Virus record (IMG/VR): IMGVR_UViG_3300001580_001418
Location: 1-64,000 of that record
Length of the DNA stretch: 64,000 nt
Direction: 5' to 3' (one strand)
Source of the DNA: a virus
Taxonomy: Duplodnaviria; Caudoviricetes
In this document: positions 6,643 through 63,686 of the stretch, in pieces
Position numbering within the stretch: position 1 is the first letter of the stretch
How the letters are laid out: each line of letters starts with the position of its first letter
Notes under the pieces: model-generated
What the model saw: the letters and a program-made list of their open reading frames with translations, nothing else
Database searches by the model: none
Told to the model about the DNA's origin: nothing
Made by a program: the position numbers and the translations under genes

Positions 6643-6651
6643 GCTTCCACC

Positions 6652-6993: not shown

Positions 6994-7007
6994 CTGTGGC
7001 CTCCTTT

Positions 7008-8254: not shown

Positions 8255-8267
8255 TTAATCACCTCCT

Positions 8268-8897: not shown

Positions 8898-9012
8898 TCA
8901 AGGTCCGCATGTAGATTACTAACAGCACGATTGCCTTTGGTTCAAAGACTACCATTCCAAATCCTACCACTGCTCGACAAATCGTTTTCATGGCACCCAC
9001 TCGTCTTCTCCA

Positions 9013-30584: not shown

Positions 30585-30659
30585 CGTTTGACCCTCCTTT
30601 CACGCTTTTGCGTAATATCAAGATAAAAAAATACCTACCCAATCGCCTACCAAGCTTCA

Positions 30660-31815: not shown

Positions 31816-31940
31816 GCGACTGACGTCGAGTAACACGTTTCAAGGAAAAAGCTCCTCTCTAAGTAAATTATCGCCCCTCTTTTCGATGCATGTTTGCTTC
31901 TTTTCTTCTTTTTCTCTTCTATCAGTTTATATCGTCTCAT
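31812..31940 (-). CDS. 42-aa basic peptide (not in ORF track)
   Basis: MRRYKL...CYSTSVA; RBS upstream; ATGA overlap downstream. Confidence 0.5.
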   Translation of the reverse strand: MRRYKLIEEKKKKRSKHASKRGAIIYLERSFFLETCYSTSVA

Positions 31941-31950
31941 CCCTTTCTCC

Positions 31951-47162: not shown

Positions 47163-47490
47163 TTAACATCTCCTTCTCTCTTGAGAGAATTGCATCAAGC
47201 ACGTCTCGATTGGTTTCTTCCTGCCCAAGTCTATCCAGATCCTCAAGGCTCGCCGCAACCTTAACTTGGGCAAGCTTTCTCCGGATCCTCTTTCCTTCGT
47301 CAACATCAGCCGTAAGCTTGATTCGTTCCTTCTCCTTGTCGATAAGCTCCCTTACATCCAACACCCCGCTCATATCCTCGGTATAGCTTTGCCCAGGCTT
47401 CAAATGAATCGGGTTAAAATGCCTGTCGTAAAAAATCTGCGGCACCTTTGTTTCGTTCTTAAAAACTCTCGTCTTCGTCGTCATTTTCAT
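47134..47490 (-). CDS. Hypothetical protein
   Basis: Coupled ORF. Confidence 0.55.
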   Translation of the reverse strand: MKMTTKTRVFKNETKVPQIFYDRHFNPIHLKPGQSYTEDMSGVLDVRELIDKEKERIKLTADVDEGKRIRRKLAQVKVAASLEDLDRLGQEETNRDVLDAILSREKEMLNVENGRSEG

Positions 47491-48137
47491 GCCTCCTTTA
47501 ATACGAAAATTTTGTTTCCGTGGGTTTCAAATATCTGTGTATATCCGAACCTGCCAAAGATTCCTCCATGTTCAATGGTTTCATCCAGGCACACCACTTC
47601 AAATCGGTGGTGCTCCAAAAGCGGCCCTTCCCTTTCAACCACAATGACCTTTGGTCTATAATTGCTCTTCTCGAAAAGGTTTTTTATTATCCTGTAATCC
47701 AGTCCTTCCGTGTCTACAGATAGCAAGTCAAGGTCTATTGGAATCCCTTCCTCCTCCAGGACATCGGATAATGTTCTTGTCATAATCTCCCCTTTTTCTT
47801 CAGATTCCTGCTCAAAAACCAAGGAATTGTGCCCCGGGGTTTTGTGTATATATGTCGTCGCAACTTCCCTCAAATCGGATACCGCAATATTCAGAATCTT
47901 GATGTTTTTTCTTTCTTTCACCGCCTCTCTCAACGGATCCCAAAAAACTTCAACGGGCATTGGCTCAATCAAAAGACCTCCCCAATTGCCGGACACAATC
48001 AAGTCGTAAGTGTTCGACAGCTCTATTCCGAAAGCCCCCACATCGACAAGCAATCTATATTTCGGGCGAACTTCCTCGAAGTACCTTCTCAAAAAATTCC
48101 CTTCTCCAAACTGGCTATGATCGATCTCATCCATCAC
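47487..48137 (-). CDS. FkbM-family methyltransferase
   Basis: VDVGA...SNT...W.GLLIEP...LLSVDTEGLD. Confidence 0.85.
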   Translation of the reverse strand: MMDEIDHSQFGEGNFLRRYFEEVRPKYRLLVDVGAFGIELSNTYDLIVSGNWGGLLIEPMPVEVFWDPLREAVKERKNIKILNIAVSDLREVATTYIHKTPGHNSLVFEQESEEKGEIMTRTLSDVLEEEGIPIDLDLLSVDTEGLDYRIIKNLFEKSNYRPKVIVVEREGPLLEHHRFEVVCLDETIEHGGIFGRFGYTQIFETHGNKIFVLKEA

Positions 48138-48646
48138 GCTTTCCTGATAACAATCTCGAAACTGTACTTATCCGCATGGGCACTCTCATAAATAATCGAA
48201 TAGGAAACGCCCAAGGACGAAAGCACTCGCTTTACATAATCCAGGCTGAAATTTGAAACCTTGTGCGCCTCGTTATAACCTTGCCCCGTCAATTTACAGT
48301 GATCTCTATACTTCTGTTCTTCAGGACAATACAGGATCAAGGACCCACTCTGTTTGATGACCCTCAGCCATTCCCTCAATACCGGACCAGTCTCTCCTTC
48401 CGGGAAATCTTCAAGCAGATGGGACGAATAAACATAGTCCAGCACCCCATCTTTGAACCAATATAAATTCCTGGCATCTCCGTGGAGATTCTGGGGACTA
48501 CTCCCAACCTCAGCATAAGGAATATCCAGGTCTACAGTAATTGCACTTGGGACAATCGGGTCTCCTCCAAACCCTATGTCCAACCCGTCTCCAAGACAAA
48601 ACTTTTTAAGCCTCTCCCTGCAAATACTCGACTCGGATGGATACAC
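48134..48646 (-). CDS. Class I SAM methyltransferase
   Basis: GLDIGFGG...LDYVYSSHLLED...EWLRVIK. Confidence 0.85.
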   Translation of the reverse strand: MYPSESSICRERLKKFCLGDGLDIGFGGDPIVPSAITVDLDIPYAEVGSSPQNLHGDARNLYWFKDGVLDYVYSSHLLEDFPEGETGPVLREWLRVIKQSGSLILYCPEEQKYRDHCKLTGQGYNEAHKVSNFSLDYVKRVLSSLGVSYSIIYESAHADKYSFEIVIRKA

Positions 48647-48659
48647 TGTTCACCCCTTC

Positions 48660-49697
48660 TTACATAAACGCAAACCTTTTGATTCCAATCTTTATTTCAT
48701 CGATAATTTTATCGGTATCCGATTTCCTCAAACAGTCCACCGTACCTTTACACCGGGTCTGTCGTCCGAAGCAAGACTCACAGCCAACCATCTCTGCCAG
48801 GTCGATCGAGTGATAATTTCTATGGTGAGCCATCTTCTCTTTGGCCCTCGTATGTCCAAACATGGCAATAATCGGAGTCTTCGTGCAGTGGGCAATCCAT
48901 AAGGCACCACTATCCATCGTTATGGCAACGTCAGCACCATCTATAAGTGCAGCAGCCTCATGGAAGGTCGTCTGTCCGGCAAGATTGCAAATACCTTTTA
49001 CTTTAATGTCTTGCTTGAAATTGTGGACCATAATCACCGAACAAACCTTCGATAGTTCGTCGGCTATCCTTATTACCTTCTCGAAAGGAAAGCTATTAAA
49101 CCACATCGCTCCAGATAACTGCATAACAGCGACAGGCCTTCCATTTTCCCTACGCGTCTCAACGATCGTTTTCGCCCAGTTTTTTTCGACATCACTGTAC
49201 GGGAGCGAGAAGATTGGTTCCTTCGGAACAGGCCAACCGACAAAATCGCAGTTAATATCCAGTCTGTGTTTATAGCTATAAGCGTTCCCAGCATGGTCCT
49301 TTTCAACAACTCCATCCAGGTAATATCCGACATCATAACGCTGAAACTGGACGCTATTTTTCCCGATCGATTTAACCAAATCCCAATACTTAAAAAGGCT
49401 TAAAAACCCATCAGCGGTAGCAAACACCACCTTGCTCTCCGGATAGGCTTCCTTCAACGAATTGATAAGGGGAGTTAAAACGAGGATGTCACCGAGCGCG
49501 TAGGTTCTCCACAGGCAAATACTGGCATCTGGATTCCGCCGCATGAATTCGTCAAGGCGTACCCCATCGGAAAGGCTCGGCAGATGAATGGATGCCACCG
49601 CCTCATCGTCAAAGCAAAAACGTGGAAACACGGTTACCGGCTCCATGCTTGGGAACCGATAAAATACTTCTACTACTTTCGACGTATTGAATCTCAT
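48660..49697 (-). CDS. Glycosyltransferase family 9 (heptosyltransferase-like)
   Basis: ALGDILVLTP; NLAGQT; DSGALWIA; PIIAMFG. Confidence 0.85.
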   Translation of the reverse strand: MRFNTSKVVEVFYRFPSMEPVTVFPRFCFDDEAVASIHLPSLSDGVRLDEFMRRNPDASICLWRTYALGDILVLTPLINSLKEAYPESKVVFATADGFLSLFKYWDLVKSIGKNSVQFQRYDVGYYLDGVVEKDHAGNAYSYKHRLDINCDFVGWPVPKEPIFSLPYSDVEKNWAKTIVETRRENGRPVAVMQLSGAMWFNSFPFEKVIRIADELSKVCSVIMVHNFKQDIKVKGICNLAGQTTFHEAAALIDGADVAITMDSGALWIAHCTKTPIIAMFGHTRAKEKMAHHRNYHSIDLAEMVGCESCFGRQTRCKGTVDCLRKSDTDKIIDEIKIGIKRFAFM

Positions 49698-49714
49698 CGT
49701 TACCTCCGCACTCA

Positions 49715-49768
49715 AAATAAGGAAGCAGGGCGAGCTGCAATCTAATTGCAACCTACAGCCCACCCTGC
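49715..49768 (-). terminator. Hairpin terminator after the major capsid gene
   Basis: GCAGGG...CCCTGC stem then TTCCTTATTTT. Confidence 0.5.
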
Positions 49769-49782: not shown

Positions 49783-50904
49783 TTACGATGAGCTCAATGT
49801 CACTGTTGCAAAGCAGTCGCCTTGCACACACTTTTTTGCGTACCGGCTCATCATGCCCCTGACAGGCTGCATGGTATTCGGGTCGATCAGGAGCGGAGTC
49901 GTGTACAGCGGTATATACGGAGCATAGACATACCCCGTGTCAAGCCAGGATCCTCCCTTGAACCCAAGGAGCATCTTGTTGGTCTGATACCAAGGGTGCT
50001 TATAAACGACGAACCTATTCTTCAGGACGCCGAATCTGTGGATGCCTACATTGAAAAGCGCATCATCGACCGTCTCTTCGAGTTTGAAGCCCTCGAGCTT
50101 TTCAAGACGGGTGCAGGTGTCCGAATCAGACACGATCCATGTGGCGTTCCGATACCTCTTTTTGAAAATGAGGTTATTCGCATCGATGATCGCATCATAC
50201 AGGGTCGCCTTATAGATCTTCGGATCGATGTTGATCCACGGAGCAATAGCGGGCATATTGATGTTCCAGTTCACGTTCCCAGCGCTCGCATTCAAGGTCA
50301 TGTCGTCGATGATGATCATATCGACTTCTCTGATGATTTCATCGCCAGTCACTGCCATCAGCTCGCTCTCGGCATCGAGTCCATGATAAGCTCGGAGATC
50401 CTGCTGGGCCTCAATCGTCCACTTTGCCTTCAGGGCCTTTTCTTCAGCGCTGATGTCAACGCTCGAAATGTGAAAATTAATTTCAGCAATATCGCCAGTC
50501 TCAGGCGTCCTGTCAGCGTAGTTCTTTGCAAGGGCACCTGCCTGATCAAGGCGATCGTCAACAGCGATGCTCCCCTTTGCAGTCCCATACCTGAAATCCA
50601 AGAAGAAAGCCTTTCCGGTCGGTTGGGACATCGGCTGCACAGAACAAAGATTCTGAGCGATCAACTTCGGGAAGATCCGCCGAACCAATGGAAATGCAAA
50701 CGTCGGGAACGCACCAACATTGGTGATCTGCGAAGTCTCCTGCAAATAATTCAGATACCATTCCATGTTCTCCAAGAGAACCTCGGTCTGCAGACGTTTC
50801 TGCTTTCCAAGGGGAGACCCATCCTCAATGCCCTCGGTAAGATAAGCCCACTTCTTGGTCCTCTCAGCGTTTTCCTCGATCAAATACTTCATTTTGGGGT
50901 CCAT
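49783..50904 (-). CDS. Major capsid protein, T4 gp23-like
   Basis: PLVRRIFP...VQPMSQPTG..F; LKAKWTIEAQQDL; YAPYIPL; RGMMSRYA. Confidence 0.9.
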   Translation of the reverse strand: MDPKMKYLIEENAERTKKWAYLTEGIEDGSPLGKQKRLQTEVLLENMEWYLNYLQETSQITNVGAFPTFAFPLVRRIFPKLIAQNLCSVQPMSQPTGKAFFLDFRYGTAKGSIAVDDRLDQAGALAKNYADRTPETGDIAEINFHISSVDISAEEKALKAKWTIEAQQDLRAYHGLDAESELMAVTGDEIIREVDMIIIDDMTLNASAGNVNWNINMPAIAPWINIDPKIYKATLYDAIIDANNLIFKKRYRNATWIVSDSDTCTRLEKLEGFKLEETVDDALFNVGIHRFGVLKNRFVVYKHPWYQTNKMLLGFKGGSWLDTGYVYAPYIPLYTTPLLIDPNTMQPVRGMMSRYAKKCVQGDCFATVTLSSS

Positions 50905-50958
50905 ATTCGAAATTCCTCCTTTCAAGTGTGTTTTGTTTACGCATTTGCGTCCGTTCTG

Positions 50959-51008
50959 AAAAAACAAAAAGCCTGAGCAATCCCCCATTGGGGACTTTCC
51001 CAGGCTTC
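50959..51008 (-). terminator. Terminator-like hairpin between scaffold and capsid genes
   Basis: AAGCCTG..TCCCC..GGGGA..CAGGCTT followed by TTTGTTTTT. Confidence 0.55.
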
Positions 51009-51044
51009 TCACCGTCGTCTTCGCCTGTTAAACTTCCTTAAAGC

Positions 51045-52385
51045 TTATGCAGTGCCGGCAGCAGTCTTTTTCCGAGCGACATCTTCAGGAACACCAGCGA
51101 TCTGTCTCTCTCGGATTTTCTTCGCATCCATTTCGGCATCATGCTTATCCTCGTCCAGAACCTCACCCTTTCCCTTCGGCTTCTCTTTCTTGGGGTCCAA
51201 TTCCTCAACGAGTTTCTGGATCCGTCCCTCTTCTGCAACAACCTTCTTGTCTACTTCGTCAACGGTCTTGCAATCGGCAAGGGCTTCCACAAGAAGCTTC
51301 TCGTGCTTCTTGCCAGCAGTCACTTCCAGGATCCTCTTCTGAACCTTCTCCTTCTCAGTAACCGATTTCTTCTCGTTCTCCATCTGCTCTTTCAGGGCCT
51401 TGTTCTCGGTTTCAAGACCAGACACTTTCCCTTCGAGTTCGCCCATCCTCTCCGCTATTCCTTCTTCCTCATCACTCTCCAATGCCCCCTCGGGCATATA
51501 GGGCTTAATCAGTTTCCCGATTTCGACGAAGGTTCCCATCATCCCCTGAAATTCCTCAGAATTCTTCACTTCCTCGATCACCTCTTTCTTGACCTCTTCC
51601 TTCTTTGCCTCAACTTCCTTCAAAATCCTGGCATCGAAGTCTTTCTGCATCGTCTCGCGAATCTCCTTCTCCTTCTTCTCCACAGATTCCTTGACGAGCT
51701 GCTCACAAAGGTCAGGATAAGCCTTCCTCAACTCCTCAATGTTTTTAATTTCCATACTCGATGAACCTCCTTTCGTTTTTTGTGTTTCGCAGATTTCCTG
51801 CTTGCAGCCATCACATGGACCGCATTCTAAAATGTTTACCACTTCCACTTGCTCAGTAACTTGAGTGACCACGGCATCTTTCGTCGACTGCCCAATCACA
51901 AAATCAAACGTCTTGAGCGTCAAATCCTCTTGAACAATGTCCGCCATCTTCCCTTGCCAGTTGCCCTTTAGAACAGAACCAAAGGCTCTACTCGAAAGTC
52001 CAATCCTGCCACCAGCTCGAATAATCTCCTGCAAATTTTTTCCGCCAGGCTCAGTATTTAAAACGGTCGCCTCTCCAAAATAAACCTTTCTCCCCTCAAG
52101 GACCTGCTTCTCAATCCCGGTCAGCATGGCAGCGGTATTCTTGATCGTTGATTTCCCATCTCCTGGATGATCAGCTTCACCATAAACGCTATTCTCCGCC
52201 ATCATAGGTTTCAGCTTCTCTATTTCGCGGTCAAGAATATGCTCACGATACACACGACCGTTACCATTTATTTCGTCTGCAACCGTAAAAATTCCTTTCA
52301 CTCGCATCCTGCCACCATTCTTTGCAGAAGCCTCTTCGAGAATGGTAAAGGCAACCGGCATCGTCTCGATCAATAGTTCTTTCAC
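51045..52385 (-). CDS. Prohead protease (T4 gp21-like) fused to scaffold
   Basis: NGNGRVY, GEADHP, GLSSRAFGS, FDFV; acidic coiled-coil C-terminus. Confidence 0.88.
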   Translation of the reverse strand: MKELLIETMPVAFTILEEASAKNGGRMRVKGIFTVADEINGNGRVYREHILDREIEKLKPMMAENSVYGEADHPGDGKSTIKNTAAMLTGIEKQVLEGRKVYFGEATVLNTEPGGKNLQEIIRAGGRIGLSSRAFGSVLKGNWQGKMADIVQEDLTLKTFDFVIGQSTKDAVVTQVTEQVEVVNILECGPCDGCKQEICETQKTKGGSSSMEIKNIEELRKAYPDLCEQLVKESVEKKEKEIRETMQKDFDARILKEVEAKKEEVKKEVIEEVKNSEEFQGMMGTFVEIGKLIKPYMPEGALESDEEEGIAERMGELEGKVSGLETENKALKEQMENEKKSVTEKEKVQKRILEVTAGKKHEKLLVEALADCKTVDEVDKKVVAEEGRIQKLVEELDPKKEKPKGKGEVLDEDKHDAEMDAKKIRERQIAGVPEDVARKKTAAGTA

Positions 52386-52430
52386 CCTCTCACCTCCTTT
52401 CTGTAAGCGTAACCACAAGACAAAACACTT

Positions 52431-52916
52431 TTAAAAAGCCAGCCCAATCGCTATACCAGCAATCACTGTGATTACCAGGCCAACCTTTTCCCAAAACACC
52501 TTTTTGTCCAACTGCTTCCGAAGCTTCTCATTCTGTTCGGAATATCGATCAGCCAACTTCTCCTCTGCCCTTGCCATCTCTTGGTAAAACTCCGCCCGCT
52601 CAACCTGGATCTTCCGTCTCTCCTCGCTAATCTCCAGAAGCGAATCCTTCATCTTTAGCTGTTCCTTGAGATTCGTTACCTCTTCTCTTAGATCGGCGTT
52701 CTCTTTTCGCAATAACGGAGCCTCTTTCCATGTTTGAAAGACCTCACCAGAGTCGCGCTGATCAGTCCAAACCCCATACTCAACGGGGCTTGGGCTTGGG
52801 GCAGACAGTGGCTGACTTGATGCCACTCTTGCGAAACTCAGTAACAATGCCATCAACAGAATCGGGAATAGTAATAGCTTCCCTCTCCTTCTTGTATTGG
52901 GCAATCCTCGTTTCAA
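52431..52916 (-). CDS. Spanin-like coiled-coil membrane protein
   Basis: Signal-like N-terminus, coiled coil, C-terminal TM; overlaps the upstream gene. Confidence 0.45.
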   Translation of the reverse strand: MKRGLPNTRRRGKLLLFPILLMALLLSFARVASSQPLSAPSPSPVEYGVWTDQRDSGEVFQTWKEAPLLRKENADLREEVTNLKEQLKMKDSLLEISEERRKIQVERAEFYQEMARAEEKLADRYSEQNEKLRKQLDKKVFWEKVGLVITVIAGIAIGLAF

Positions 52917-53178
52917 GGATACTGACCTCCTTCTGTTTCTTTTTTAGCCTATCGTTCAGGCTATTGATTTGATCCTCATAATCTTTCTCTTTGGTTTGCC
53001 ATATCGTCTCAAGCGAATCACGTTCACCCATTAATTGCTGAACGGTTGCCTTAGCCTCTTCCAGCTTTTTGTCAAGCTCTCTCGCGGACGCCCCACGACT
53101 CCAGACGTAATACCCGCCACCAACCAAAGTGCATACTATCACCACACCAATTATTACTTTCCACTTAAGAGGTATCAC
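52780..53178 (-). CDS. i-spanin-like protein
   Basis: N-terminal TM plus coiled coil, after the endolysin. Confidence 0.55.
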   Translation of the reverse strand: MIPLKWKVIIGVVIVCTLVGGGYYVWSRGASARELDKKLEEAKATVQQLMGERDSLETIWQTKEKDYEDQINSLNDRLKKKQKEVSILETRIAQYKKEREAITIPDSVDGIVTEFRKSGIKSATVCPKPKPR

Positions 53179-53306
53179 TGTCCCTCCGTTTTCTTGTGGG
53201 CAATCTTATCCCACAGCTTTCCAAATAAAACCTTGAGCTGCTCTTTGTATTTATGCGCATATGCACCAGCAGCAAACGAAACCACAATGATCACAATCGT
53301 CCTCAT
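53175..53306 (-). CDS. 43-aa single-TM peptide (not in ORF track)
   Basis: MRTIVIIVVSFAAGAYAHK...; overlaps both neighbours by 4 nt. Confidence 0.5.
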   Translation of the reverse strand: MRTIVIIVVSFAAGAYAHKYKEQLKVLFGKLWDKIAHKKTEGQ

Positions 53307-53953
53307 ACGAATCCTCCTCCCTTGTAAAGCGGGACCCATCGATCAAGAATTTTTTCCACGTAATCCCTATTCTCTTCGATCGCCCACGAAGCCCTTTTTG
53401 AAAAATGTTCGACATTGCAGATCCAACGTCCCCCGTCCTTTCCGTTTAAAACGGCCAGATCTTTATCCTTCAGAACCCAACCATATCCACCGTTATAACC
53501 TGACAGCGAAAATCTCCAGCGATTATCGTCATCACGAGCAAACGAACAGCGATCGTGGAGCCACTTATCGTATTTGACCAGTGCCCGGATGGCCCACCTC
53601 ACATCAAGCGGATTGTTATCCCCAAGGTCTGCCGGATATAATCGTGAAATCCAATCCGCCGTATCAGGCGTAAATTGAGCCAAACCTGATGCATAAACGC
53701 TCTTGGCATCTGGATTCCAACTGCTCTCCTGATGAATCTGCGCATAGAAAACTGTTCCATCTTGATCCAACCCCCAATGATAGTTAACTTCAGCTCGTAC
53801 CGTTCGCTTCAGGCGATACGCCAATGCCGGAATTCTCGGATCTCGAATTTCAATTGCTGGCTCAACCTTCGGAGTCGCCACTTCCGGCGTCTCAATGGCA
53901 GGCTTACTACACCCCCAATAAAACACCAAGAATAACAGCGGCCATAACCGCAC
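53303..53953 (-). CDS. Endolysin, SLT lytic transglycosylase
   Basis: AQIHQESSWNPDAKS, GLAQF, YNGG, ENRDYV; start uncertain. Confidence 0.85.
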   Translation of the reverse strand: MRLWPLLFLVFYWGCSKPAIETPEVATPKVEPAIEIRDPRIPALAYRLKRTVRAEVNYHWGLDQDGTVFYAQIHQESSWNPDAKSVYASGLAQFTPDTADWISRLYPADLGDNNPLDVRWAIRALVKYDKWLHDRCSFARDDDNRWRFSLSGYNGGYGWVLKDKDLAVLNGKDGGRWICNVEHFSKRASWAIEENRDYVEKILDRWVPLYKGGGFV

Positions 53954-54230
53954 CCCGAAGGATGCACGCACCAATAAACTTTTGAGCATCAGGCACCTCA
54001 TTCTTCTTATCCTCCGCAAGCAGAGCCGAGAGACTCATGTACGGGTACAGGGCCTTCACAACGATATGCCCAATCACTGCTCCAGCGATCCCCAGCATCA
54101 ACTTATACAATGCAAGTCTGGCCGTACTCTGCGGTGCAGCGACAAACTGGAAAAGCAGGTAGAGCACCACCGTCAGAACGATCAACCACTTCACAGTCAA
54201 AAAAGCCCTGACAATCGCATACTTCTTCAC
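53907..54230 (-). CDS. Holin (3 TM)
   Basis: LYKLML...LYPY...RGAVMAAVILG; directly upstream of the endolysin. Confidence 0.75.
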   Translation of the reverse strand: MKKYAIVRAFLTVKWLIVLTVVLYLLFQFVAAPQSTARLALYKLMLGIAGAVIGHIVVKALYPYMSLSALLAEDKKNEVPDAQKFIGACILRGAVMAAVILGVLLGV

Positions 54231-54355
54231 TCGCCACCACCCCCCATCTCCATATCGTAGGATTCTTTACAATCGGCTTTTATTGACTTCTTCTCGCTGT
54301 CGGTAAATTCCTCAGAATCGTCAACCATTTTGAGAATGTCATCTAAAATGCTCAT
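54227..54355 (-). CDS. 42-aa acidic peptide (not in ORF track)
   Basis: MSILDDILKMVDDSEEF...; GGAGGT RBS. Confidence 0.45.
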   Translation of the reverse strand: MSILDDILKMVDDSEEFTDSEKKSIKADCKESYDMEMGGGGE

Positions 54356-54358
54356 CTC

Positions 54359-55081
54359 TTACCTCCCCACTGGTCTTGCGGCAGTCTTAACCGCCGTGAG
54401 ACCGGCACCAACGACCTGCGAACCCGCACCTTTTGCGGAACCCACGGCCTTACTTCCGCTTGCCTTTATTTGGCTGAACACCGCATTCGCCCTCGCTTGC
54501 AAACTGATTGCAACGTGCATGGCAGCTCGAGATTCTTTCCCGGTAGAACCCTTCGCCTTGTTAACAGCAGCCCTTCTCATTCCTTCAAGGGCACCGATCT
54601 TCTTGTTGGCTGAGAGTCCATTTGCGTCCAGCTTTCCCTGCTGAGCCTTCGGTATGTACGACTCGTTATACTTCTGGATACCATGTTTCAAGACTTGCGT
54701 CTTATTGGCACCGCTCAGCTTACTATAATTTGCCGTGTCCAGCTTTCCTCGAGCATTATAGAATTCCCTTGCGTGAATCTTTTCGCCACCAACAGTGACC
54801 TTGTGGGCAGAGATGCCGGAACCACCGACACGTTCTTTACGAAACTTTTCCCAAAACTTTTTTTCGTTCGAAGTCATCGCACGAGCCTTGGGAAGCTCGC
54901 CCCAACCTTTTCCTGTTGTCTTACCACTTTTGGCAGCACCACTCTTTCTACCACCGCCCAGCGAACCGCCCCTCATCCCCGGTCTTCCCTTGTGGCCCCA
55001 ATTCCCACTTCCGGCGCCGCCTTCAAAGAGCCTCACCTTAACCTCAGAGACAATGCTCTTTACAAATTCCTGGTTGATCAT
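54359..55081 (-). CDS. Basic protein carrying the GG.GSGN tag
   Basis: RLFEGGAGSGNWGHKGRPGMRGGS. Confidence 0.7.
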   Translation of the reverse strand: MINQEFVKSIVSEVKVRLFEGGAGSGNWGHKGRPGMRGGSLGGGRKSGAAKSGKTTGKGWGELPKARAMTSNEKKFWEKFRKERVGGSGISAHKVTVGGEKIHAREFYNARGKLDTANYSKLSGANKTQVLKHGIQKYNESYIPKAQQGKLDANGLSANKKIGALEGMRRAAVNKAKGSTGKESRAAMHVAISLQARANAVFSQIKASGSKAVGSAKGAGSQVVGAGLTAVKTAARPVGR

Positions 55082-55095
55082 CTCTTATCTCCTTT

Positions 55096-55773
55096 TCAGT
55101 CAAAGAACAGCCGGCCCTTAATATCTTCAGCCCACTCTTTCGCAAGGAATTTGACTTGCTTCTCGAGCTCCCTACCCGTCGAAAGCCTTACTTCGTCGCC
55201 TACGACCGAATACGGAACCTCAAAATACTTCCCGTCGTCAGTCGAGACAAAAATCTTTTTTGGAAATGTGGACACAATATCAGGATACTTCCCATAAAGC
55301 TGGCTATCCTTCAGGGCAGCATAAAGCTTGTCACGCAGATCCTCAAAGCTTCCCTTTATCCCACGAAGGCCATTACCTCCGACCGCAACAACTTCACCTT
55401 TTTGCTCTCCTATACCCATCTTTCTCCTCCTTTTCGACATCACTGACCCCCAACATTTTTCAGTCACTCTTGGGGCAATATTGGCAATCATCGAAGTCTC
55501 CTTCACCTCTTTTTTTTCAGCCTTCCCGGGCTTAAACAGAATCGGCTTAATCTTATGCTTCTTGAGCCATGCCTTCGCCTGATCAACCGTGAACTTGTCC
55601 ATCTCGAAACGATACGTCTGCGCAGTCATCGGACCATTGGGTCCATCTTTCTTCAACTTTCCGGTAATCAGATTAATCCCTGGCTTAATCTCGATCGTGG
55701 CCCACATGTCTTTGCCATCAAGAAACTCACCTGGATCCTTCACCCTGCCACTATGCCAATTTGCCAGAGGCAT
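55096..55773 (-). CDS. Head-associated protein
   Basis: HSGRVKDP...QTYRF..KFT..QAKAWL and YFEVPYSV.GDEV modules resemble those appended to phage maturation proteases. Confidence 0.5.
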   Translation of the reverse strand: MPLANWHSGRVKDPGEFLDGKDMWATIEIKPGINLITGKLKKDGPNGPMTAQTYRFEMDKFTVDQAKAWLKKHKIKPILFKPGKAEKKEVKETSMIANIAPRVTEKCWGSVMSKRRRKMGIGEQKGEVVAVGGNGLRGIKGSFEDLRDKLYAALKDSQLYGKYPDIVSTFPKKIFVSTDDGKYFEVPYSVVGDEVRLSTGRELEKQVKFLAKEWAEDIKGRLFFD

Positions 55774-55981
55774 TTTCCTCACCCCCAAAATTGAACATTG
55801 CCTTCACCTCTAAGGGTTCGCACCACAACTCGAACTTCATCCTGCCAATAATCCCGTCATAAAGAGGCAACGTAATGTTTCCTTGCGCTCCACCTTCTGC
55901 AAGCTTTCGAATCGCAGCCAACGTCTCATCCAGAATCTGTTTCTTCTCTTCGGGTGTTTTATGCTCTTTCCTGAAGCCCAT
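55751..55981 (-). CDS. Small hypothetical protein
   Basis: GGAGG RBS. Confidence 0.55.
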   Translation of the reverse strand: MGFRKEHKTPEEKKQILDETLAAIRKLAEGGAQGNITLPLYDGIIGRMKFELWCEPLEVKAMFNFGGEENASGKLA

Positions 55982-55995
55982 TTTAGCCCTCCACC

Positions 55996-56328
55996 TTACC
56001 GATAAATTTTGCTAACAAGCTTTCGTCCCACAAAAATATTAACCAACCTCTTCAATATCTTTATTGGATTACCGGACGCAGCAACCTCAACATTTCGCAT
56101 AGTCCGCGCAGCTCTCCAGAGCTTTCCGCTAAGCTTTGGAATCCGGATGCTTCCCCTCTCCCCTTTAAGAATTGCCCGGGCTATCGATCTACCCTTAGTC
56201 GGCAGGCTGCCTCCTCTTCTCCCCGGTCTTCCCTTGTGGCCCCAATTCCCACTTCCGGCGCCGCCTTCGAAAAGGTCTGCTAAAACACCAGAAGAAATAT
56301 CTTTCACAATTGCGTAATTTTCAGACAT
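55996..56328 (-). CDS. Small basic protein carrying the GG.GSGN tag
   Basis: DLFEGGAGSGNWGHKGRPGRRGGS. Confidence 0.7.
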   Translation of the reverse strand: MSENYAIVKDISSGVLADLFEGGAGSGNWGHKGRPGRRGGSLPTKGRSIARAILKGERGSIRIPKLSGKLWRAARTMRNVEVAASGNPIKILKRLVNIFVGRKLVSKIYR

Positions 56329-56338
56329 AAAAATACCT

Positions 56339-56608
56339 CTACACGATCATCACGTCAGACGCGCGGAGATAAGGATTGTCATAGCGAAACTTCAGCATCG
56401 ATAAGAACTTCTCCCCATCCTTCGGGTAAAACTTCTTCACCTTTGGTTTCGTATAATCCTTAATGCCGTATTCAGTCAGTTCGTCAAGGATCTGCTTCGG
56501 CGTTTCACCAACCGCAATCATTTTCTTACCATTCCAAACAATCGACCCTACTGCTGTGTCCCTGTCACTCTTAAAGTCGTACCCGTAGAAAACAACCTTT
56601 GCAGCCAT
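56339..56608 (-). CDS. Small protein downstream of the kinase (candidate immunity)
   Basis: GGAGG RBS; overlaps the kinase 3' end. Confidence 0.55.
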   Translation of the reverse strand: MAAKVVFYGYDFKSDRDTAVGSIVWNGKKMIAVGETPKQILDELTEYGIKDYTKPKVKKFYPKDGEKFLSMLKFRYDNPYLRASDVMIV

Positions 56609-57729
56609 CCTAATCCCTCCACTAAACCCTTCACTTTGTCCGGCGTATAGCCATGCTTTTCAGTCCATGGCTTGTGCCACTCAAATCGTTCCTTCGGAAA
56701 ATATTTCATGTTTACCAATTCGGCGGCTCTATCAAACGTCTTTTTCGCAAAAGACGGGTTACTCATCATCGAAGCCAGTCTCTTCTCGAGAGCCGGCCTA
56801 TTCGAAAGCAATCTCTTGACGGCAGCTTTAACTTCCATCGGAATGGGCCTATCTTCCACCATCGGAATCGTTGACGATACGATCTTATCAGACTTCCAGA
56901 ACGTCAGCGCATTATCGATTGCCCACGTCTTACCGTTCTTGTCAACAACGTAATTCCCTGGATGCCTGTCTTGGTTTCCGATGATAAAATCGAAAGCAGT
57001 GATCTTCGCCATATCGACATACTTAAACTTTCCACCCGCAGCAATATGCTTTGACCCAATCTGTCCTTCAACAAAGTGCATCACACTGCCTTTCTCTTTC
57101 CCTTTGCCCCTTCCAACATCCACCTCTCTGTAAACAACAGGCGGAACAACACCAAAGCCAAGCATCTTGTCGAACTCGTACGCAGCTACTTCCTTCCGCG
57201 CTCTGTTGTCCATCGTCTTAAAAACACCCTTACGTCCATCCACGTTCATGACAAAGGTCGGTGTGACTCCTCCGCCAAGACTTTTCACGTTTGAAATAAC
57301 ACCAGTCGTAAGATCCTTCTGCACTTTCATCTGGATCTCAGTCTTAAGCCCTACAGATGAAGCCACGCTGCTGGCATTCAAGCCAACCTTCGTTGATGCA
57401 ACCGCGCTACCACTACTCAGTCCAGCCTTCGTTAATGCCCTCTGGTATCGTCCTTCTGGCTGACCAGGATACTTGCTCTTAATATACGAGAGCGCCTGAG
57501 CAGAATCACCGATACCTTTACTCTTGATCTTCGTTGCCATTTCACGCGAATAAACTCGTTTCTCTCCGCCAACAACGTGAGCAGAAATTCCACCACTACC
57601 GCCACCACCACCCAACGAACCACCTTTCATTCCTGGACGCCCTTTGTGCCCCCAATTGCCTGAGCCTGGACCGCCTTCAAGAATTTCCGCAGACAAATCC
57701 TTTATCAGTGCATATTCAGCCAACAACAT
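56548..57729 (-). CDS. HipA/PI3-PI4K-like kinase carrying the GG.GSGN tag
   Basis: GVFK, EVAAY, FDFIIGNQDRHPGN, AIDN; EILEGGPGSGNWGHKGRPG. Confidence 0.8.
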   Translation of the reverse strand: MLLAEYALIKDLSAEILEGGPGSGNWGHKGRPGMKGGSLGGGGGSGGISAHVVGGEKRVYSREMATKIKSKGIGDSAQALSYIKSKYPGQPEGRYQRALTKAGLSSGSAVASTKVGLNASSVASSVGLKTEIQMKVQKDLTTGVISNVKSLGGGVTPTFVMNVDGRKGVFKTMDNRARKEVAAYEFDKMLGFGVVPPVVYREVDVGRGKGKEKGSVMHFVEGQIGSKHIAAGGKFKYVDMAKITAFDFIIGNQDRHPGNYVVDKNGKTWAIDNALTFWKSDKIVSSTIPMVEDRPIPMEVKAAVKRLLSNRPALEKRLASMMSNPSFAKKTFDRAAELVNMKYFPKERFEWHKPWTEKHGYTPDKVKGLVEGLGWLQRLFSTGTTLRVTGTQQ

Positions 57730-57973
57730 CAATCCCCATTTCCTCGAGCGTATCGACCACCGCATCGGGATAACCGGTCTCGCCGGGTTTAACCATTTTG
57801 GTCCCATCGACAGTGACGCTCCCAACTTCATCTGAAACCTTTAACGCCATGGCTTTACCATTTAAACCAGAAAACTTCGGATTTTGAGAAACCAATCTTA
57901 CGATATTTCCCTCAATCATTAAGACCACTATCGCTGTTCCATCGCTACTTATTCCGTACTTCATCCCTTTCAT
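57716..57973 (-). CDS. Small protein downstream of MuF-peptidase (candidate immunity)
   Basis: ATGA overlap with the MuF gene. Confidence 0.55.
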   Translation of the reverse strand: MKGMKYGISSDGTAIVVLMIEGNIVRLVSQNPKFSGLNGKAMALKVSDEVGSVTVDGTKMVKPGETGYPDAVVDTLEEMGIDVVG

Positions 57974-59757
57974 GACACAAACACCTTCTTGTAGATTTCG
58001 GCTATCTTCGGGGCCTTTCTCTCAAGTCTTCCTCTGTCAACTACGTACATTGCATAACCCTCAGCAAAACCTTCGCGCGGCTTAGAAGACCCATATCTCG
58101 TAATCTTTCCCTTACTGGCATTTGCTACCCAAACGGCGCGTACAACTCCAAATATCTCCGCAACGGAATGACCGAATTCATGTAGAAACGTTGACTTTGA
58201 AACTCCACGTGCAAGCACTATCTCACCACTATTGCTATCATGGAATCCATCGACGCTTTTCCAAAGCTTACCACCAGCTCTCAGGTTGGCAAGGTCAGTA
58301 ACCTCTGCCACTCCACTCAAAAAAGTTATGGCCCTTACCTCCGTCCCGACCAGGTGTTTCTCAGGCAACATAGCCAACGTCTCATGCACAAACTTCTTAT
58401 CCGCATCACTTCCAGAAACAAGAAGTTTCTTTGAATCAAGAATCTTCTTGACCTTATCAGGCGTTAATCCATATCCACCCCTCTGCACTCTTGTGGCCGG
58501 GAAAATAACGACACCAGACTTTAGGAGCGCCCTCCCATATCTCTCCTGAGGCTGCCCAGGAAATTTATTTCTCAACACAGCTACCGCTTCGCCTAGACCA
58601 AACTTCTTACCCTGGCCTGCCATCTCACCCTTTAACCAATCGGCCATCTGACTTGATCCAATTGCCCCATGCCCAGCAATACCACCACCAGGGAGACTGC
58701 CACCACGCATCCCAGGACGACCCTTGTGCCCAAAATTACCAGAGCCGGGGCCGCCTTCGAGAAGCAATTCTTTTTTAACCTCTTCAACGATCGATTCAAC
58801 AAACTTCGTTTTCTGAACTTGCCCGCCCGGCACATAATAAATCTTGTGCTTCTCCATGAAGTCGATCATATCGGCGTTCAGATCACGACGCATCCGAATC
58901 AGTTCCTTCTTCTGATCACCACTTGTGGCACTGATCATTCCTCTAAGTCGATCAATCTCGGATGACATTTGACCAAGTTTGTCACGTTCATTGTCAGACG
59001 GTAGGCGATAACCTTGAGGCGGGGCAACCAGCTTCGGACCTTTAATGACGTACAGTTCAGGCTTTGGCTTTTCCTCCGCATACTCAAAACGGAGCTCGCA
59101 CCTGCAATTAGAAAGACAGCGCGAAGTGCCATCTCTCGGGACGGCAGGCAATGTCTTTTTTGTATATGGGCCACCCGCAGCAAGTCTGATACAGTCATCA
59201 CAATGCCTCGCCTCCCTTAAAATCCATCGAATCTTCACAAACTCAGGAGACCCATCAACCTTACCATGATGAAAAACACCATCCAGCGTCTCTGTATACA
59301 TGGACAGACGGTCTTCTATGCCCATGACCAATGCGTTCTTCTTAATGTCCTCGACGAATCTACCAAGGTATCCGAACTCTTCGGCCTCGGCACCTTTCAA
59401 CCACGTCTTGTCCTGTTCCCAAATCCCGAATGGATTCCCAACAGACTTAATTCCTAATCCATAAGCCTTCTCCCAGGCATCCTTAATCTCAGAATGCCAC
59501 AGCGTCTCCATCACTTCAGCTGTGATTTCTCCCTTCTGATAAGAACCAAGAATACCGAACAGGGCATCCTTGAACTCTTCTTTTAAGCCGTCATAATCGG
59601 AGACAGCCTGTGCAATCATCTTCTTGTCCAGATTCGTACGCAGACTTCCTATCAACCTAACAAGCGTGGACATGAGAATCGCCTTCTCGTTGGCAAACGT
59701 TCTCCGGCCACCAAATGATTTGCCTTCTGTCAGGTTGCAAGCTAATTGCAAACTCAT
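57970..59757 (-). CDS. MuF-like head morphogenesis protein with internal tag and C-terminal zincin metallopeptidase
   Basis: HCDDC...CLSNCRC; LLLEGGPGSGNFGHKGRPG; HEFGH...YG...EGFAE. Confidence 0.8.
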   Translation of the reverse strand: MSLQLACNLTEGKSFGGRRTFANEKAILMSTLVRLIGSLRTNLDKKMIAQAVSDYDGLKEEFKDALFGILGSYQKGEITAEVMETLWHSEIKDAWEKAYGLGIKSVGNPFGIWEQDKTWLKGAEAEEFGYLGRFVEDIKKNALVMGIEDRLSMYTETLDGVFHHGKVDGSPEFVKIRWILREARHCDDCIRLAAGGPYTKKTLPAVPRDGTSRCLSNCRCELRFEYAEEKPKPELYVIKGPKLVAPPQGYRLPSDNERDKLGQMSSEIDRLRGMISATSGDQKKELIRMRRDLNADMIDFMEKHKIYYVPGGQVQKTKFVESIVEEVKKELLLEGGPGSGNFGHKGRPGMRGGSLPGGGIAGHGAIGSSQMADWLKGEMAGQGKKFGLGEAVAVLRNKFPGQPQERYGRALLKSGVVIFPATRVQRGGYGLTPDKVKKILDSKKLLVSGSDADKKFVHETLAMLPEKHLVGTEVRAITFLSGVAEVTDLANLRAGGKLWKSVDGFHDSNSGEIVLARGVSKSTFLHEFGHSVAEIFGVVRAVWVANASKGKITRYGSSKPREGFAEGYAMYVVDRGRLERKAPKIAEIYKKVFVS

Positions 59758-61325
59758 CTATTAATCTCCAGGTCCACCAAATCCCTCAGCGTCTCGACAA
59801 GATTCATCATCTGCATCGTCACGATATGAAAACCATCGGATCGATTCAATCCGTTACTTCCATCTTCCTTCTGAGAAACCATCGCCAAAGGATTCAAGCC
59901 ACCTACTTGAGGGGTCGTCATTCCCGTCGCCCCGGCAGCCCTCAGTGACGGCGTTGTTGCTTTTTTAGGGGATGGTGAGGTAAGGGGTGCAGGTTTATCT
60001 TTTAATACGGCAGCAATTTCTTCATCGGGCAAGCCAAGAAAAGTCCGAAGAATGAACTCATCGCCAAGGATTTGCATATCAACCTTGTAAATCTTAGCAA
60101 CCTCGGCCTTCAGCTTCTCCATTGTCCATTTCCGCATCTCGTCAACCATCGAGATCGGCTCAAAGCTAATTTCGTACAGTCCCTTCGTTGAAGCGATGCC
60201 TCGAAGTATCAGCTGATAATCGATGATCTGGATCAAACCCGTTCGTAACGCCTTCCGAATCCTTCCAACGGTCCGCGCAAACTGAATGTCCTCTTCAACG
60301 ATCGTGGCCTTCGCCTTCACGTCTTTCTCAAGGCCAACAAATGCCTTCGGGACCTTCAACCCTGCGAACAGCTTCGTCTGGAAATATTCCACGTCTCGGA
60401 TGTTGCCAAGATTAGTTGCACCCTGCAGAACATTAACGTCAGCTTTCGATTCTTTCGTTACTCCGAGGAAAAAATCCTCTTCCGCAGACAGCGGGTTTTG
60501 GGTCGTTTCAAGCTGCCCCGTCACGGGGTTAACCATCCTCTTCTTCTTAAACTCTCTCTTTACGTCTTCGACATATGACTTTCTCTCTTCTCTGTCCAGA
60601 CCATCAACATCAACCAAAATTTTATATCTCAGATGGGACCGCGTCAGCCGACCAATCACCATCCCATCTTCCATCATTTGCAGTTGCTTATAGACCCGGC
60701 GGATCGATTTCATCACGCTCTCGCCGTAAAGTTTCTTTTGCCCACCATTCCTCCAATGAACTATCTGCCATTTCTCGAACTCAGCAACGCTAACGGTTCC
60801 GCTTTCATCCTTCTGTACGTATGGTTTTTCGGCATCACGACCATACTCATCCACTTCCCTGTGCATCATTGCCGGTTCAAGGGGCTTTAATCGGTCAATC
60901 CATCCTTCCGAATCAACAACCACCTCGTCGAACTCGTCTCCCATTTTGGATAAATTTCTTGCAGTATCCCAAATCGTCTCCTGGATCTTCGTCCTATCAA
61001 ACAGCTCGTCTATAATGTTTTGGACTCTCGGGTTCTTACTCTTCACCTCAATTGCATTACCCGTCTTCCCTTTCTCCTTTGTTGCATTGTCAGCGTACAG
61101 GTCAAGGGCTGTCGAAATTTCAGGATACTCCTCGTCCATGATCAGGTAATCGATATATTTCGCTTTCCTCGTGCGCTCAATCTTGATTTTCTTATAGTAG
61201 AGACTCGCAGCAAAGCTTTCGAAGCTGGTCTCGGTCGTCTCTTCCCTCTTCTTTGGTGGCGTGGCAAGTTTCGACAATGCCGCGCTTATCCTATCAATCA
61301 ACGGGATGTTAATTTTTACTTCCAT
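59754..61325 (-). CDS. Portal protein, T4 gp20-like
   Basis: LQMMEDGMVIGRLTR, EEDFFL, GATNLGNIRDVEYF..KL..GLKVP. Confidence 0.88.
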   Translation of the reverse strand: MEVKINIPLIDRISAALSKLATPPKKREETTETSFESFAASLYYKKIKIERTRKAKYIDYLIMDEEYPEISTALDLYADNATKEKGKTGNAIEVKSKNPRVQNIIDELFDRTKIQETIWDTARNLSKMGDEFDEVVVDSEGWIDRLKPLEPAMMHREVDEYGRDAEKPYVQKDESGTVSVAEFEKWQIVHWRNGGQKKLYGESVMKSIRRVYKQLQMMEDGMVIGRLTRSHLRYKILVDVDGLDREERKSYVEDVKREFKKKRMVNPVTGQLETTQNPLSAEEDFFLGVTKESKADVNVLQGATNLGNIRDVEYFQTKLFAGLKVPKAFVGLEKDVKAKATIVEEDIQFARTVGRIRKALRTGLIQIIDYQLILRGIASTKGLYEISFEPISMVDEMRKWTMEKLKAEVAKIYKVDMQILGDEFILRTFLGLPDEEIAAVLKDKPAPLTSPSPKKATTPSLRAAGATGMTTPQVGGLNPLAMVSQKEDGSNGLNRSDGFHIVTMQMMNLVETLRDLVDLEINR

Positions 61326-61368
61326 ATCCAATCCTTTCAATCGTTACGCATGTGCGTATTATCCGCAC

Positions 61369-61724: not shown

Positions 61725-63686
61725 TCACTTCCCGAGTAACCATTTTGTCTCTTCCAACTTTCTTTTAATTTCATCATCAGCCGCAGATTCAGTAATCCCA
61801 AGGGACGGCGCAACGGGTTCTACCACCTTCTTCGTCTCGCAGTTATGGACCACTCCTGCAAGGCTATCCGCCATGTCCTTCGATCCACTCGGTCTGTGAT
61901 CGACCTTCCCTTTTCGCTTATTCCATTCTAACTGCCTCAGCTCGTTCACCCCGACGGGATGCAAATATCCTTTTAGCCTTGTCTCATAGAGCGCCATCTT
62001 TAATCGGCTATAGGGCTGCGTGTTAACGTCAACACTCAACTCTTCAACATTCATGCCCTTATCTTTCAACTGCTGTTGCGTGTCTTTCGATTGGAAAGAG
62101 TCCATCGTTATCAAGGCAAACCTAAATCCCATCTCCTTCAGCTCAAAAATCAACTGCCTAATATCGCCCAGGATGATCTCTCCGGCGGGGGGCGGAACAA
62201 TACGCAACCACAGATCGACATAAATCACGGGAAGCATTTCGACAAACGCTTCCCTTCTCGTTTTTGGTTCCAACGTTCCAGGTTCAATAATCTGTATCGT
62301 TCTCCAACGTGTCCTTTCCTCGTAATGGCTCGGGTGCCCCATACAAAACCCTGCCGCATCACCGCTGATCGAAGGGTCAATATGGACATAGCGTCTCGTT
62401 TTGGGATTTACTTTCGGTCTCAAGCCTTCAAACTTCACTACCCCAAGTTCATCCACTTCCTTCACCCACTGGCACAACACATCTCTCAAAACATAGGCGC
62501 CGTCCCTCAGCGTCGTTTCGTAGGCGCTAAACGGATGCCTTCGATTATCCTCATACATTTTTGCAATCATATCCCTCTTCGTAATGAATGGTTCGATCGC
62601 AACGGTGGCCTTACCCGCAAGATCTCTCAGGGATCCTTCCATGTCAATTTCGAAGTCATGTCTGAACTCAATCGGGACCGCTATCTTTTCCTCTTCCTCT
62701 CCAAGCACTTCCTCGTCTTTCGGTATTCTTCCAAGGCCGGACTCTCTGTTGAAGAAGATGATGAACTTCTCTTCGCTATAAGTACCATCGGGCTTCGTGT
62801 CCCAAACAGCATAATTCCTTACAAACACGTTCTTGTGTCCTTGATACAGGGCCGCTTTCCTTTCCATAAAATCATCTGGGTACTGAGCGCTACTTAATGC
62901 CATGAGCTTCCCGGGCAAGTTCCCGAACCTCAAATAACGTGTCTCCATCCTTCGAAGCAGTGCAGTGAACACTACTTCAGCCTGGTCATAAAGCCTCTTC
63001 CCGCCACGGAGTCTTGCCGTCTGCGATCGCTCTACGATCGGCATAAAATTCGCCTCGTCCATGGCCGCAGCAAACGTATTCATACCAATAACCTGTGACT
63101 GCGTACATGCTGCCAGCAAGACATTGTTCGGAAATCTGAGCTCGGTTGCAAAATCCTGGTACGGGAAAACGGTTCTGAAATACTCGCTTCCCTTAATCTT
63201 TCCTTTCAGTCCTTCAAAAATAACTCTCTTCGCTTGCGTGTGCGTCACCGACACGTTGGCAAAAAAGAGCTTGTCTTCCTTAACCATCCGATACGTCTTT
63301 TGGGGATTCTTTAAACACGAGACTTCATAAATAATTCTCGCAATCGCAATCTCGGAAAACGTTGACTTCCCCCAACCAATAGACCCACCGAACAACCCAA
63401 GGAAGTATTCATTTCCTGGGTCAAAAAACTCGATGAGGTCATCCACAAGCTTAGGGTAAACCGTATCAATAATCCCAAGATAGTACGGCTCCTTCAGAAA
63501 CGTATACATATCTACTGGCTTCTCAATATAATCGATGCTTCTCAGGTCATCTTCGATCTTGCTCTTTCCAATCCCAACGTACTCCTCGAGAGCTTTTATA
63601 AAAAGGTCTGCTTCTTCTGGACTCTTAAACCCACTTAACGCTTTTTCGATCAGCACAGGGTCAATCAATTTTTCTATCTCAGGCAT
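61725..63686 (-). CDS. terL: Terminase large subunit
   Basis: GGSIGWGKS, AAMDEAN, HIDP, KVDH...SKDMADS; upstream of portal. Confidence 0.9.
   Translation of the reverse strand: MPEIEKLIDPVLIEKALSGFKSPEEADLFIKALEEYVGIGKSKIEDDLRSIDYIEKPVDMYTFLKEPYYLGIIDTVYPKLVDDLIEFFDPGNEYFLGLFGGSIGWGKSTFSEIAIARIIYEVSCLKNPQKTYRMVKEDKLFFANVSVTHTQAKRVIFEGLKGKIKGSEYFRTVFPYQDFATELRFPNNVLLAACTQSQVIGMNTFAAAMDEANFMPIVERSQTARLRGGKRLYDQAEVVFTALLRRMETRYLRFGNLPGKLMALSSAQYPDDFMERKAALYQGHKNVFVRNYAVWDTKPDGTYSEEKFIIFFNRESGLGRIPKDEEVLGEEEEKIAVPIEFRHDFEIDMEGSLRDLAGKATVAIEPFITKRDMIAKMYEDNRRHPFSAYETTLRDGAYVLRDVLCQWVKEVDELGVVKFEGLRPKVNPKTRRYVHIDPSISGDAAGFCMGHPSHYEERTRWRTIQIIEPGTLEPKTRREAFVEMLPVIYVDLWLRIVPPPAGEIILGDIRQLIFELKEMGFRFALITMDSFQSKDTQQQLKDKGMNVEELSVDVNTQPYSRLKMALYETRLKGYLHPVGVNELRQLEWNKRKGKVDHRPSGSKDMADSLAGVVHNCETKKVVEPVAPSLGITESAADDEIKRKLEETKWLLGK

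Follow-up and report, generated by a model that had tools for sequence, protein, structure and literature searches.

Bacteriophages inject proteins that disarm host defences, and the choice, loading and release of this cargo are known in detail for few models, such as T4. The capsid-targeting sequences of T4 are N-terminal propeptides of 10–19 amino acids (aa) that are removed by gp21, with residues 8 and 10 governing their processing (PMC9026906). Ejection proteins of giant phages, such as phiKZ gp175 and SPN3US gp245, similarly lose N-terminal propeptides after a glutamate through a gp21-related protease, and all gp21-like proteases studied (T4, phiKZ, 201phi2-1 and SPN3US) cut C-terminal to Glu (PMC5694885). 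For polyvalent proteins, Iyer, Burroughs, Anand, de Souza and Aravind proposed in 2017 that the domains are released by embedded metallopeptidases, with no mention of the junction motif analysed here (PMC5512222), and no linker or cleavage motif was described for the MuF polymorphic toxins (Jamet et al. 2017, PMC5576092). Here, a cassette of genes sharing a short peptide tag was analysed in the virus record IMGVR_UViG_3300001580_001418 of IMG/VR (Duplodnaviria; Caudoviricetes), whose positions 1 to 64,000 constitute the window to which the coordinates of this phage refer. Four minus-strand genes, located between the portal and head protease genes, encode the tag, which consists of (L/I)-x-E followed by GGxGSGN(F/W)GHKGRPGxxGGS. 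On the strength of sequence comparisons, we give a probability of about 0.6 to the reading that the cassette encodes head-internal cargo proteins, in which a T4-like propeptide is combined with the junction of polyvalent proteins and cut by the head protease. The tagged genes and the head genes around them are as follows.

57970–59757, minus strand: tagged gene for a 595-aa protein, overlapping the portal stop codon; leader helix at aa 319–332, LLE ending at residue 334 (Glu codon 58756–58758), core at aa 335–354 (nucleotides (nt) 58696–58755), three-helix post-tag module at aa 368–414 and putative C-terminal M34-type HEFGH zincin at aa ~430–595.
56548–57729, minus strand: tagged gene for a 393-aa kinase; 18-aa leader MLLAEYALIKDLSAEILE (Glu codon 57676–57678), core at nt 57616–57675.
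55996–56328, minus strand: tagged gene for a 110-aa protein; 21-aa leader, LFE ending at residue 21 (Glu codon 56266–56268), core at nt 56206–56265, very basic tail of 69 aa.
54359–55081, minus strand: tagged gene for a 240-aa protein; 20-aa leader MINQEFVKSIVSEVKVRLFE (Glu codon 55022–55024), core at nt 54962–55021, basic payload.
59754–61340, minus strand: T4-type (gp20-like) portal (PF07230, 7e-55).
51045–52418, minus strand: prohead protease of family S77 (gp21-like), 457 aa (PF03420, 6.8e-15, 55.5 bits against a cut-off of 27).
49783–51012, minus strand: gp23-type major capsid protein (PF07068, 4e-60).

The core comprises 20 residues, reads GG(P/A)GSGN(F/W)GHKGRPG(M/R)(R/K)GGSL in this phage and is directly preceded by LLE, ILE, LFE and LFE, respectively. 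The four positions named for the tags in a sequence-only reading of the window were verified, including the Glu codon before each core, which is GAA in all cases. A degenerate DNA pattern for the core gave exactly four matches, all at these sites, as opposed to none in 100 shuffles, and no further copy of the tag was present in the whole virus record (94 kb, estimated completeness ~70%). When the 22-codon tag units were compared in pairs, 8–24 of the 66 bases differed. In five of the six pairs, 11–14 of the approximately 20 identical residues were specified by different synonymous codons, including TCN versus AGY for serine. Because many synonymous codon differences have accumulated while the residues were kept, the tag peptide itself is under protein-level selection. 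The sixth pair, formed by the 110-aa and 240-aa genes, showed a synonymous difference at only four residues and shares an exact stretch of ~49 bp (54976–55024 and 56220–56268) that spans both tags, whereas the other pairs differ at 19–24 of the 66 bases. For these two genes, recent gene conversion or recombination at the tag is therefore indicated.

A profile of the tag was built from the four copies and run against 1.84 billion representative proteins. It matched 3187 protein clusters at E ≤ 1e-3, of which 630 remained at E ≤ 1e-10. Many of the matched clusters are polyvalent proteins of 1000–3000 residues with 4–10 tag copies each. In such multi-tag proteins, one enzyme domain follows every copy (for example DRAT, MuF, GNAT, ART, PI3/4K, 2H or Zeta toxin), giving architectures such as tag-DRAT-tag-MuF-tag-GNAT-tag-ART or tag-PI3/4K-tag...2H...tag-Zeta toxin. 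The precomputed Pfam partners of the tag were ART-PolyVal, ADPrib_exo_Tox, Zeta toxin, Fic, NUDIX, 2H, RelA/SpoT, GNAT, metallopeptidases and PI3/4K; portal domains and MuF are also found among its fusion partners. The non-glycine core residues S, N/H, H, R, P and S were invariant across 596 tags. The core is the general junction motif of phage polyvalent proteins, the modules of which are carried by this phage as separate genes. Since the same junction occurs in thousands of phages with other protease types, the 20-residue core is not this phage's own signal, and only P1–P3 (numbered backwards from the residue before the core) and the leader appear to be protease-specific. Close relatives carry the zincin as a separate tagged gene and a MuF-like protein fused to other payloads. 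Modules that are fused in one phage are separate in its relative, so the fused and stand-alone forms are interchangeable.

The cassette resembles the polyvalent proteins described by Iyer et al. in its repertoire of payloads (kinase, zincin, ART, Zeta toxin, NUDIX, 2H and RelA/SpoT, as counted over the tagged proteins), in its position among virion genes beside portal and MuF, and in the identical junction motif that separates the domains of many of these giants. It differs from them in having every module encoded by a gene of its own, complete with leader and tag. Polyvalent proteins are recognised by at least two unrelated effector domains; three of the four genes here carry a single payload and only the 595-aa protein joins two domains, which places the cassette outside that definition.

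The residue directly before GG (P1) was compared in 596 tags from 146 units, a unit being a protein or locus with at least three tags. Its mean entropy was 0.20 bit within a unit and 2.77 bit between units, compared with 1.2–1.7 bit for P2–P8 within units. The units per P1 class numbered 42 for K, 28 for L, 19 for D, 18 for R, 16 for N, 10 for E and 8 for A. In the E class, P3 was L, I, V, M or F in 45 of 45 tags; in the L/A class it was R or K, and the consensus of the R class was L-V-E-R. Records of the different classes were then typed by their head proteases. The S77 protease was detected in the present record and in 6 of 20 E-class records but in 0 of 67 records of other classes. A second protease, similar to phrog_15531 ('head maturation protease', 460–600 aa, no Pfam match; L073 5331–6731, L078 6479–7852, L105–L107 and G045 30548–32359), was confined to E-class records among those typed. 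Comparison by hhalign showed this second protease to be remotely homologous to S77 (91%, E 1e-6 over 185 columns), with the His and Ser motifs aligned. One or the other of these two proteases was present in all 13 E-class records with a completeness of at least 34%. Strong matches to proteases of the DUF2213 family (PF09979) were obtained for 19 of 23 D-class records, and a divergent form was present in five of five L/A-class records; E-class and K-class records had none. Fisher tests yielded p values of 2e-7 for E versus gp21-like and 1e-11 for D versus DUF2213 (58 records, without G045 and the K-class set, relatedness being ignored). Since the gp21-like proteases concerned share only 23–36% identity with one another, they represent several deep lineages. 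P1 varies with the family of the head protease, and Glu with an aliphatic P3 occurs only alongside proteases of the gp21 superfamily. The P1/P3 pattern of the E class agrees with the known specificity of gp21-like enzymes, which cut after Glu.

Tagged genes adjoin the portal gene in the sampled lineages of four P1 classes (E, D, K and L/A), and C-terminal tags and enzymes are often found on the portal itself. The order after the portal in the E, D and L/A classes is tagged genes, a MuF-like gene or the head protease or both, and the capsid gene; the large terminase subunit (TerL) lies upstream where sampled. K-class sequences showed TerL, portal and tagged genes, to which one complete genome added genes for a MuF-like protein and the capsid protein. 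Portal, MuF-like, protease or capsid neighbours were found in every lineage examined, which clearly contradicts the absence of any association with head modules that the sequence-only reading had named as a refuting outcome. HK97-type S78 proteases were considered as partners of K-class tags and rejected, as only four weak matches were obtained from 30 K-class records and none from the 44 records screened first. In L043, a member of the L/A class (IMGVR_UViG_3300037070_008166, 6015–8900), a divergent DUF2213 domain (aa ~285–403) lies between two tags of a 961-aa polyprotein, an arrangement that resembles a self-excising protease.

Searches of cultured phages (50,697 records) by tblastn with a 52-aa tag and by blastn with its DNA returned nothing usable, for which the shortness of the query and low-complexity filtering are the probable reasons. 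One tag-bearing portal has its closest cultured relative in Faecalibacterium phage FP_Brigit, where the 26 kb read around the portal gene contained no tag, so that no cultured phage carrying the motif was found in these BLAST searches and this region. A sequence search of the PDB with the tag gave only chance matches to engineered gp41 constructs, and no description of the motif was found in the open-access papers and preprints searched, including by motif strings.

According to the proposed mechanism, a tagged protein is composed of an amphipathic helix of 17–21 residues, (L/I)-x-E, the 20-residue core and a basic payload. The helix would bring the protein into the assembling prohead core in the manner of the T4 capsid-targeting sequences, and the gp21-family protease (51045–52418) would cut between Glu and Gly. 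The payloads, freed with a common Gly-rich N-terminus, would stay in the capsid and probably exit with the DNA. Cleavage and packaging of the tagged proteins are what we infer from the comparisons described above. After the proposed cut, all four payloads are basic, and their isoelectric points (pI) of 10–12 resemble those of the T4 internal proteins. Leader and Glu had been interpreted in the sequence-only reading as a targeting and cleavage signal. This part of the claim gained support from the presence of a real S77 protease, the T4-like leaders and the restriction of Glu to phages with gp21-superfamily proteases; its extension to the core was given up, as the core is a widespread junction and not a signal of this phage. 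The core is probably disordered. It is conserved across protease families, and its presence even 10 residues from the N-terminus of polyproteins suggests that the mature payload needs it; DNA binding, portal binding or ejection are possible roles after cleavage.

The leaders were compared with the propeptides of the T4 internal proteins (IPI, IPII, IPIII and Alt). Those of the three stand-alone tagged genes comprise 18, 21 and 20 aa, are N-terminal and amphipathic and end in ILE, LFE and LFE, whereas the fourth tag, in the 595-aa protein, is internal, with a leader that follows the MuF-like domain and ends in LLE. Other E-class polyproteins have leaders of 10–11 residues ending in L-x-E (for example MRESLYQKLVE/GG and MTMLKLVVRE/GG, the slash marking the proposed cut), in keeping with the format of the T4 capsid-targeting sequences, and leaders of 21–55 residues precede the first tag in the non-E classes. 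T4 and the phage studied here have in common a T4-type portal and capsid protein, a gp21-family protease and short N-terminal propeptides ending in (L/I)-x-E, placed before cargo proteins, basic or enzymatic, that are not related to one another. There is also a short resemblance between MINQEFV... in this phage and MKTYQEFIAE in T4, where IPII and IPIII start with MKTYQEFIAE/A (read from the T4 genome). Unlike the T4 genes, which are scattered, the tagged genes lie together between portal and protease; their leaders measure 18–21 aa as against 10–19 aa, the protease is fused to a scaffold-like region, and no sequence family is shared. No kinship to the T4 IP or Alt proteins was detected in the four tagged proteins, three of which gave no match in Pfam or PHROG and one, the kinase, only PF00454 and two PHROGs of unknown function. 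Since the T4 internal proteins lack a Gly-rich core after the cut site, such a core is not needed for gp21-type targeting or cutting. The ejection proteins of the giant phages likewise have no conserved Gly-rich core after their cleavage motif, which is (S/A/G)-x-E, and in contrast to their genomes the present one, with its 94-kb record at ~70% estimated completeness, is not that of a jumbo phage.

Several points weigh against cleavage of the tags by the head protease. No matching head protease was identified for the largest class, K, nor for R and N, and the one complete K-class genome runs from the MuF-like gene straight to the capsid gene. The link between P1 and protease rests on a limited number of deep lineages and may in part be due to common ancestry. 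The leaders slightly exceed the T4 capsid-targeting sequences in length and share with them only the short QEF(I/V)-like resemblance; moreover, 20 invariant residues, which have no counterpart in the T4 internal proteins, exceed the needs of a protease site. This excess is accounted for if the junction is left uncut and combines the roles of flexible joint, docking peptide for a conserved head component (the portal, the MuF-like protein or the DNA, for instance via GRP and His) and site of module recombination, P1 being inherited with the tag of the lineage. Such an explanation would fit the identity of the core across phages with unrelated proteases and the targeting and cutting of T4 internal proteins in its absence, and the 49-bp exact repeat, together with the fused and separate modules of relatives, points to recombination at the tag. 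It was nevertheless judged unlikely, as a docking signal is needed once per polypeptide, yet the tag precedes every domain, even 10–11 residues from the N-terminus of a polyprotein. Within a phage, P1 is also far more constrained than P2–P8 and than several positions inside the motif, every P1 class has its own preferences at P2–P4, and the E class fits the known gp21-like specificity.

Still less probable is cleavage by another agent, be it an embedded or dedicated peptidase (here the M34-type zincin), a host protease acting after ejection, or the tag itself through its conserved Asn, His or Ser. Release by embedded metallopeptidases is what Iyer et al. proposed (PMC5512222), this phage has a zincin directly behind a tag, K-class phages are without a recognisable head protease, and the invariance of the core would fit recognition by one conserved enzyme as well as autocatalysis. 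However, BLAST with the zincin domain found close relatives only and not most of the tag-bearing loci or proteins (at low sensitivity), and neither a single enzyme nor self-cleavage would explain why P1–P4 shift with the head protease family. As for a functionless similarity arising by chance or from low complexity, the sequence is glycine-rich and may have been masked by the BLAST low-complexity filter, but this explanation is refuted for practical purposes by the four matches against none in shuffles, the invariant non-glycine residues of the 596 tags, the synonymous differences and the 3187 clusters. Taken as they stand, the data point to processing by the prohead protease, unlike the proposal of Iyer et al. 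A wider generalisation, advanced here tentatively and with somewhat less than even confidence, is that polyvalent proteins and their stand-alone relatives are polyproteins processed in the prohead via a universal junction, GGxGSGNxGHxGRPGxxGGS. Its P1–P4 would be tuned to the head protease (Glu for gp21-like, Asp for DUF2213, (R/K)-x-(L/A) for divergent DUF2213, others being unmatched), and the core would have a further conserved role after cleavage.

The cassette joins two separate lines of work, on T4 capsid-targeting propeptides and on giant polyvalent proteins, and the rule it offers is a conserved junction motif whose preceding residue matches the head protease of the phage. If true, this rule would explain how polyvalent proteins are processed, provide a readable code for prohead protease specificity and predict the cleavage specificity of uncharacterised head proteases such as DUF2213. 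A simple motif would then reveal cargo proteins in metagenomic phages, and leader plus junction would form a portable rule for loading foreign proteins into many capsids, including those of laboratory phages.

The payloads were characterised by Pfam and PHROG searches and, for the 595-aa protein, by an AlphaFold2 model. In this model, the leader forms a helix (aa 319–332), the tag a low-confidence loop (aa 335–364, predicted local distance difference test score 24–36), and both the three-helix module (aa 368–414) and the C-terminal domain are confident, whereas confidence in the N-domain is low. The best Foldseek matches of the C-terminal domain were PPEP-3, PPEP-1, Zmp1 and the catalytic domain of anthrax LF (E 2e-4, template-modelling score 0.58), so that its modelled fold resembles the M34-type zincin fold of Pro-Pro endopeptidases. 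In agreement with this result, the sequence contains HEFGH and EGFAEGY motifs; the Pfam match to ATLF, at E 0.1, was below the cut-off. As a universal processing enzyme, the zincin was unsupported by BLAST co-occurrence, BLAST being insensitive in this setting. The 393-aa protein contains a PI3/PI4-kinase-like domain (PF00454, 1.2e-6, above the cut-off), and a GAGGA-like site precedes its ATG at 57729. Its Pfam matches, PI3_PI4_kinase and a weak Fam20C, did not include the HipA family. The residues following the proposed cut have a pI of 12.0 in the 110-aa protein (89 residues after Glu21) and of 11.0 in the 240-aa protein (220 residues after Glu20). Many homologues of the 110-aa protein, 107–111 aa in length, occur in metagenomes. 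Of the payloads expected from the window alone, a kinase, a HExxH domain and two very basic domains were thus recovered, the kinase as PI3/PI4-like with HipA dropped and the HExxH domain as a modelled M34-type zincin.

The post-tag module (58516–58653, aa 368–414 of the 595-aa protein) consists of ~50 residues in three helices and contains FPGQPxxRYxRAL. It is common to the zincin protein, the kinase protein (43% identity between the two over 102 aa) and several tagged proteins of related phages, and may be the real docking element.

The N-domain of the 595-aa protein had been taken for MuF, and the cassette for an extension of the MuF polymorphic toxins to stand-alone effectors. No Pfam match to MuF (PF04233) was obtained for this domain even at E ≤ 1, and hhalign against MuF-like head-morphogenesis proteins gave a probability of 0.1%, which leaves the identification unconfirmed. 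The only pointers to MuF are a CxxC...NCRC signature, the position after the portal and phrog_24776, a PHROG of unknown function. As in the systems described by Jamet et al. (PMC5576092), the gene directly after the portal encodes a protein whose C-terminal enzymatic domain varies, and a small open reading frame (ORF) comes next. Unlike in those systems, three of the four tagged proteins are without a MuF part, and in the fourth the domain is the doubtful one just described. Unfused polyvalent proteins equipped with T4 internal-protein propeptides provide a better frame for the cassette than MuF toxins.

Seven ORFs, all on the minus strand, make up the cassette between the portal gene (59754–61340) and the protease gene (51045–52418). 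The untagged members and a further ORF upstream of the portal gene are as follows.

57716–57973, minus strand: acidic 85-aa ORF after the zincin gene, pI 4.7, paralogue of the 89-aa ORF.
56339–56608, minus strand: 89-aa ORF after the kinase gene, paralogue of the 85-aa ORF.
55096–55788, minus strand: untagged basic 230-aa ORF inside the cassette.
61725–63686, minus strand: 653-aa ORF situated upstream of the portal, a putative large terminase subunit on the basis of position and size.

The paralogy of the 85-aa and 89-aa ORFs was established by BLASTP (E 9e-7), and each of them trails the gene for one enzymatic payload (zincin and kinase, respectively). No match to a known family was found for either in Pfam or PHROG; inhibitors, chaperones or immunity proteins are candidate roles. 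The 230-aa ORF also gave no family match in Pfam or PHROG. An untagged ORF of 232 aa lies at the corresponding place in a related phage (L005, 12788–13486), a correspondence of position. For the 653-aa ORF, no Pfam family was returned at E ≤ 0.001.

The identification of the surrounding head genes as T4-type portal, S77 prohead protease and gp23-type capsid protein was upheld by Pfam. The protease additionally matches phrog_207 (6.8e-34) and carries an acidic, scaffold-like coiled-coil tail that is fused C-terminally to the protease domain; His73, Ser131 and Asp161 were invariant in an alignment with six homologues (29–77% identity). At the candidate maturation site of the capsid protein, YLQE/T, which had likewise been noted from the sequence, the Glu is kept at this column in seven related S77 phages.

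The head module is interrupted by a lysis-type cluster (52431–54230, minus strand), which separates the cargo cassette from the protease gene. Its members are a membrane protein of 107 aa that is holin-like, an SLT transglycosylase of 238 aa whose N-terminus is lipoprotein-like, and a pair of overlapping coiled-coil/transmembrane proteins that are spanin-like in appearance. Directly downstream of the capsid gene (47487–49763, minus strand), Pfam matches identified a GT9 glycosyltransferase (PF01075), a class I methyltransferase (PF08241) and an FkbM methyltransferase (PF05050).

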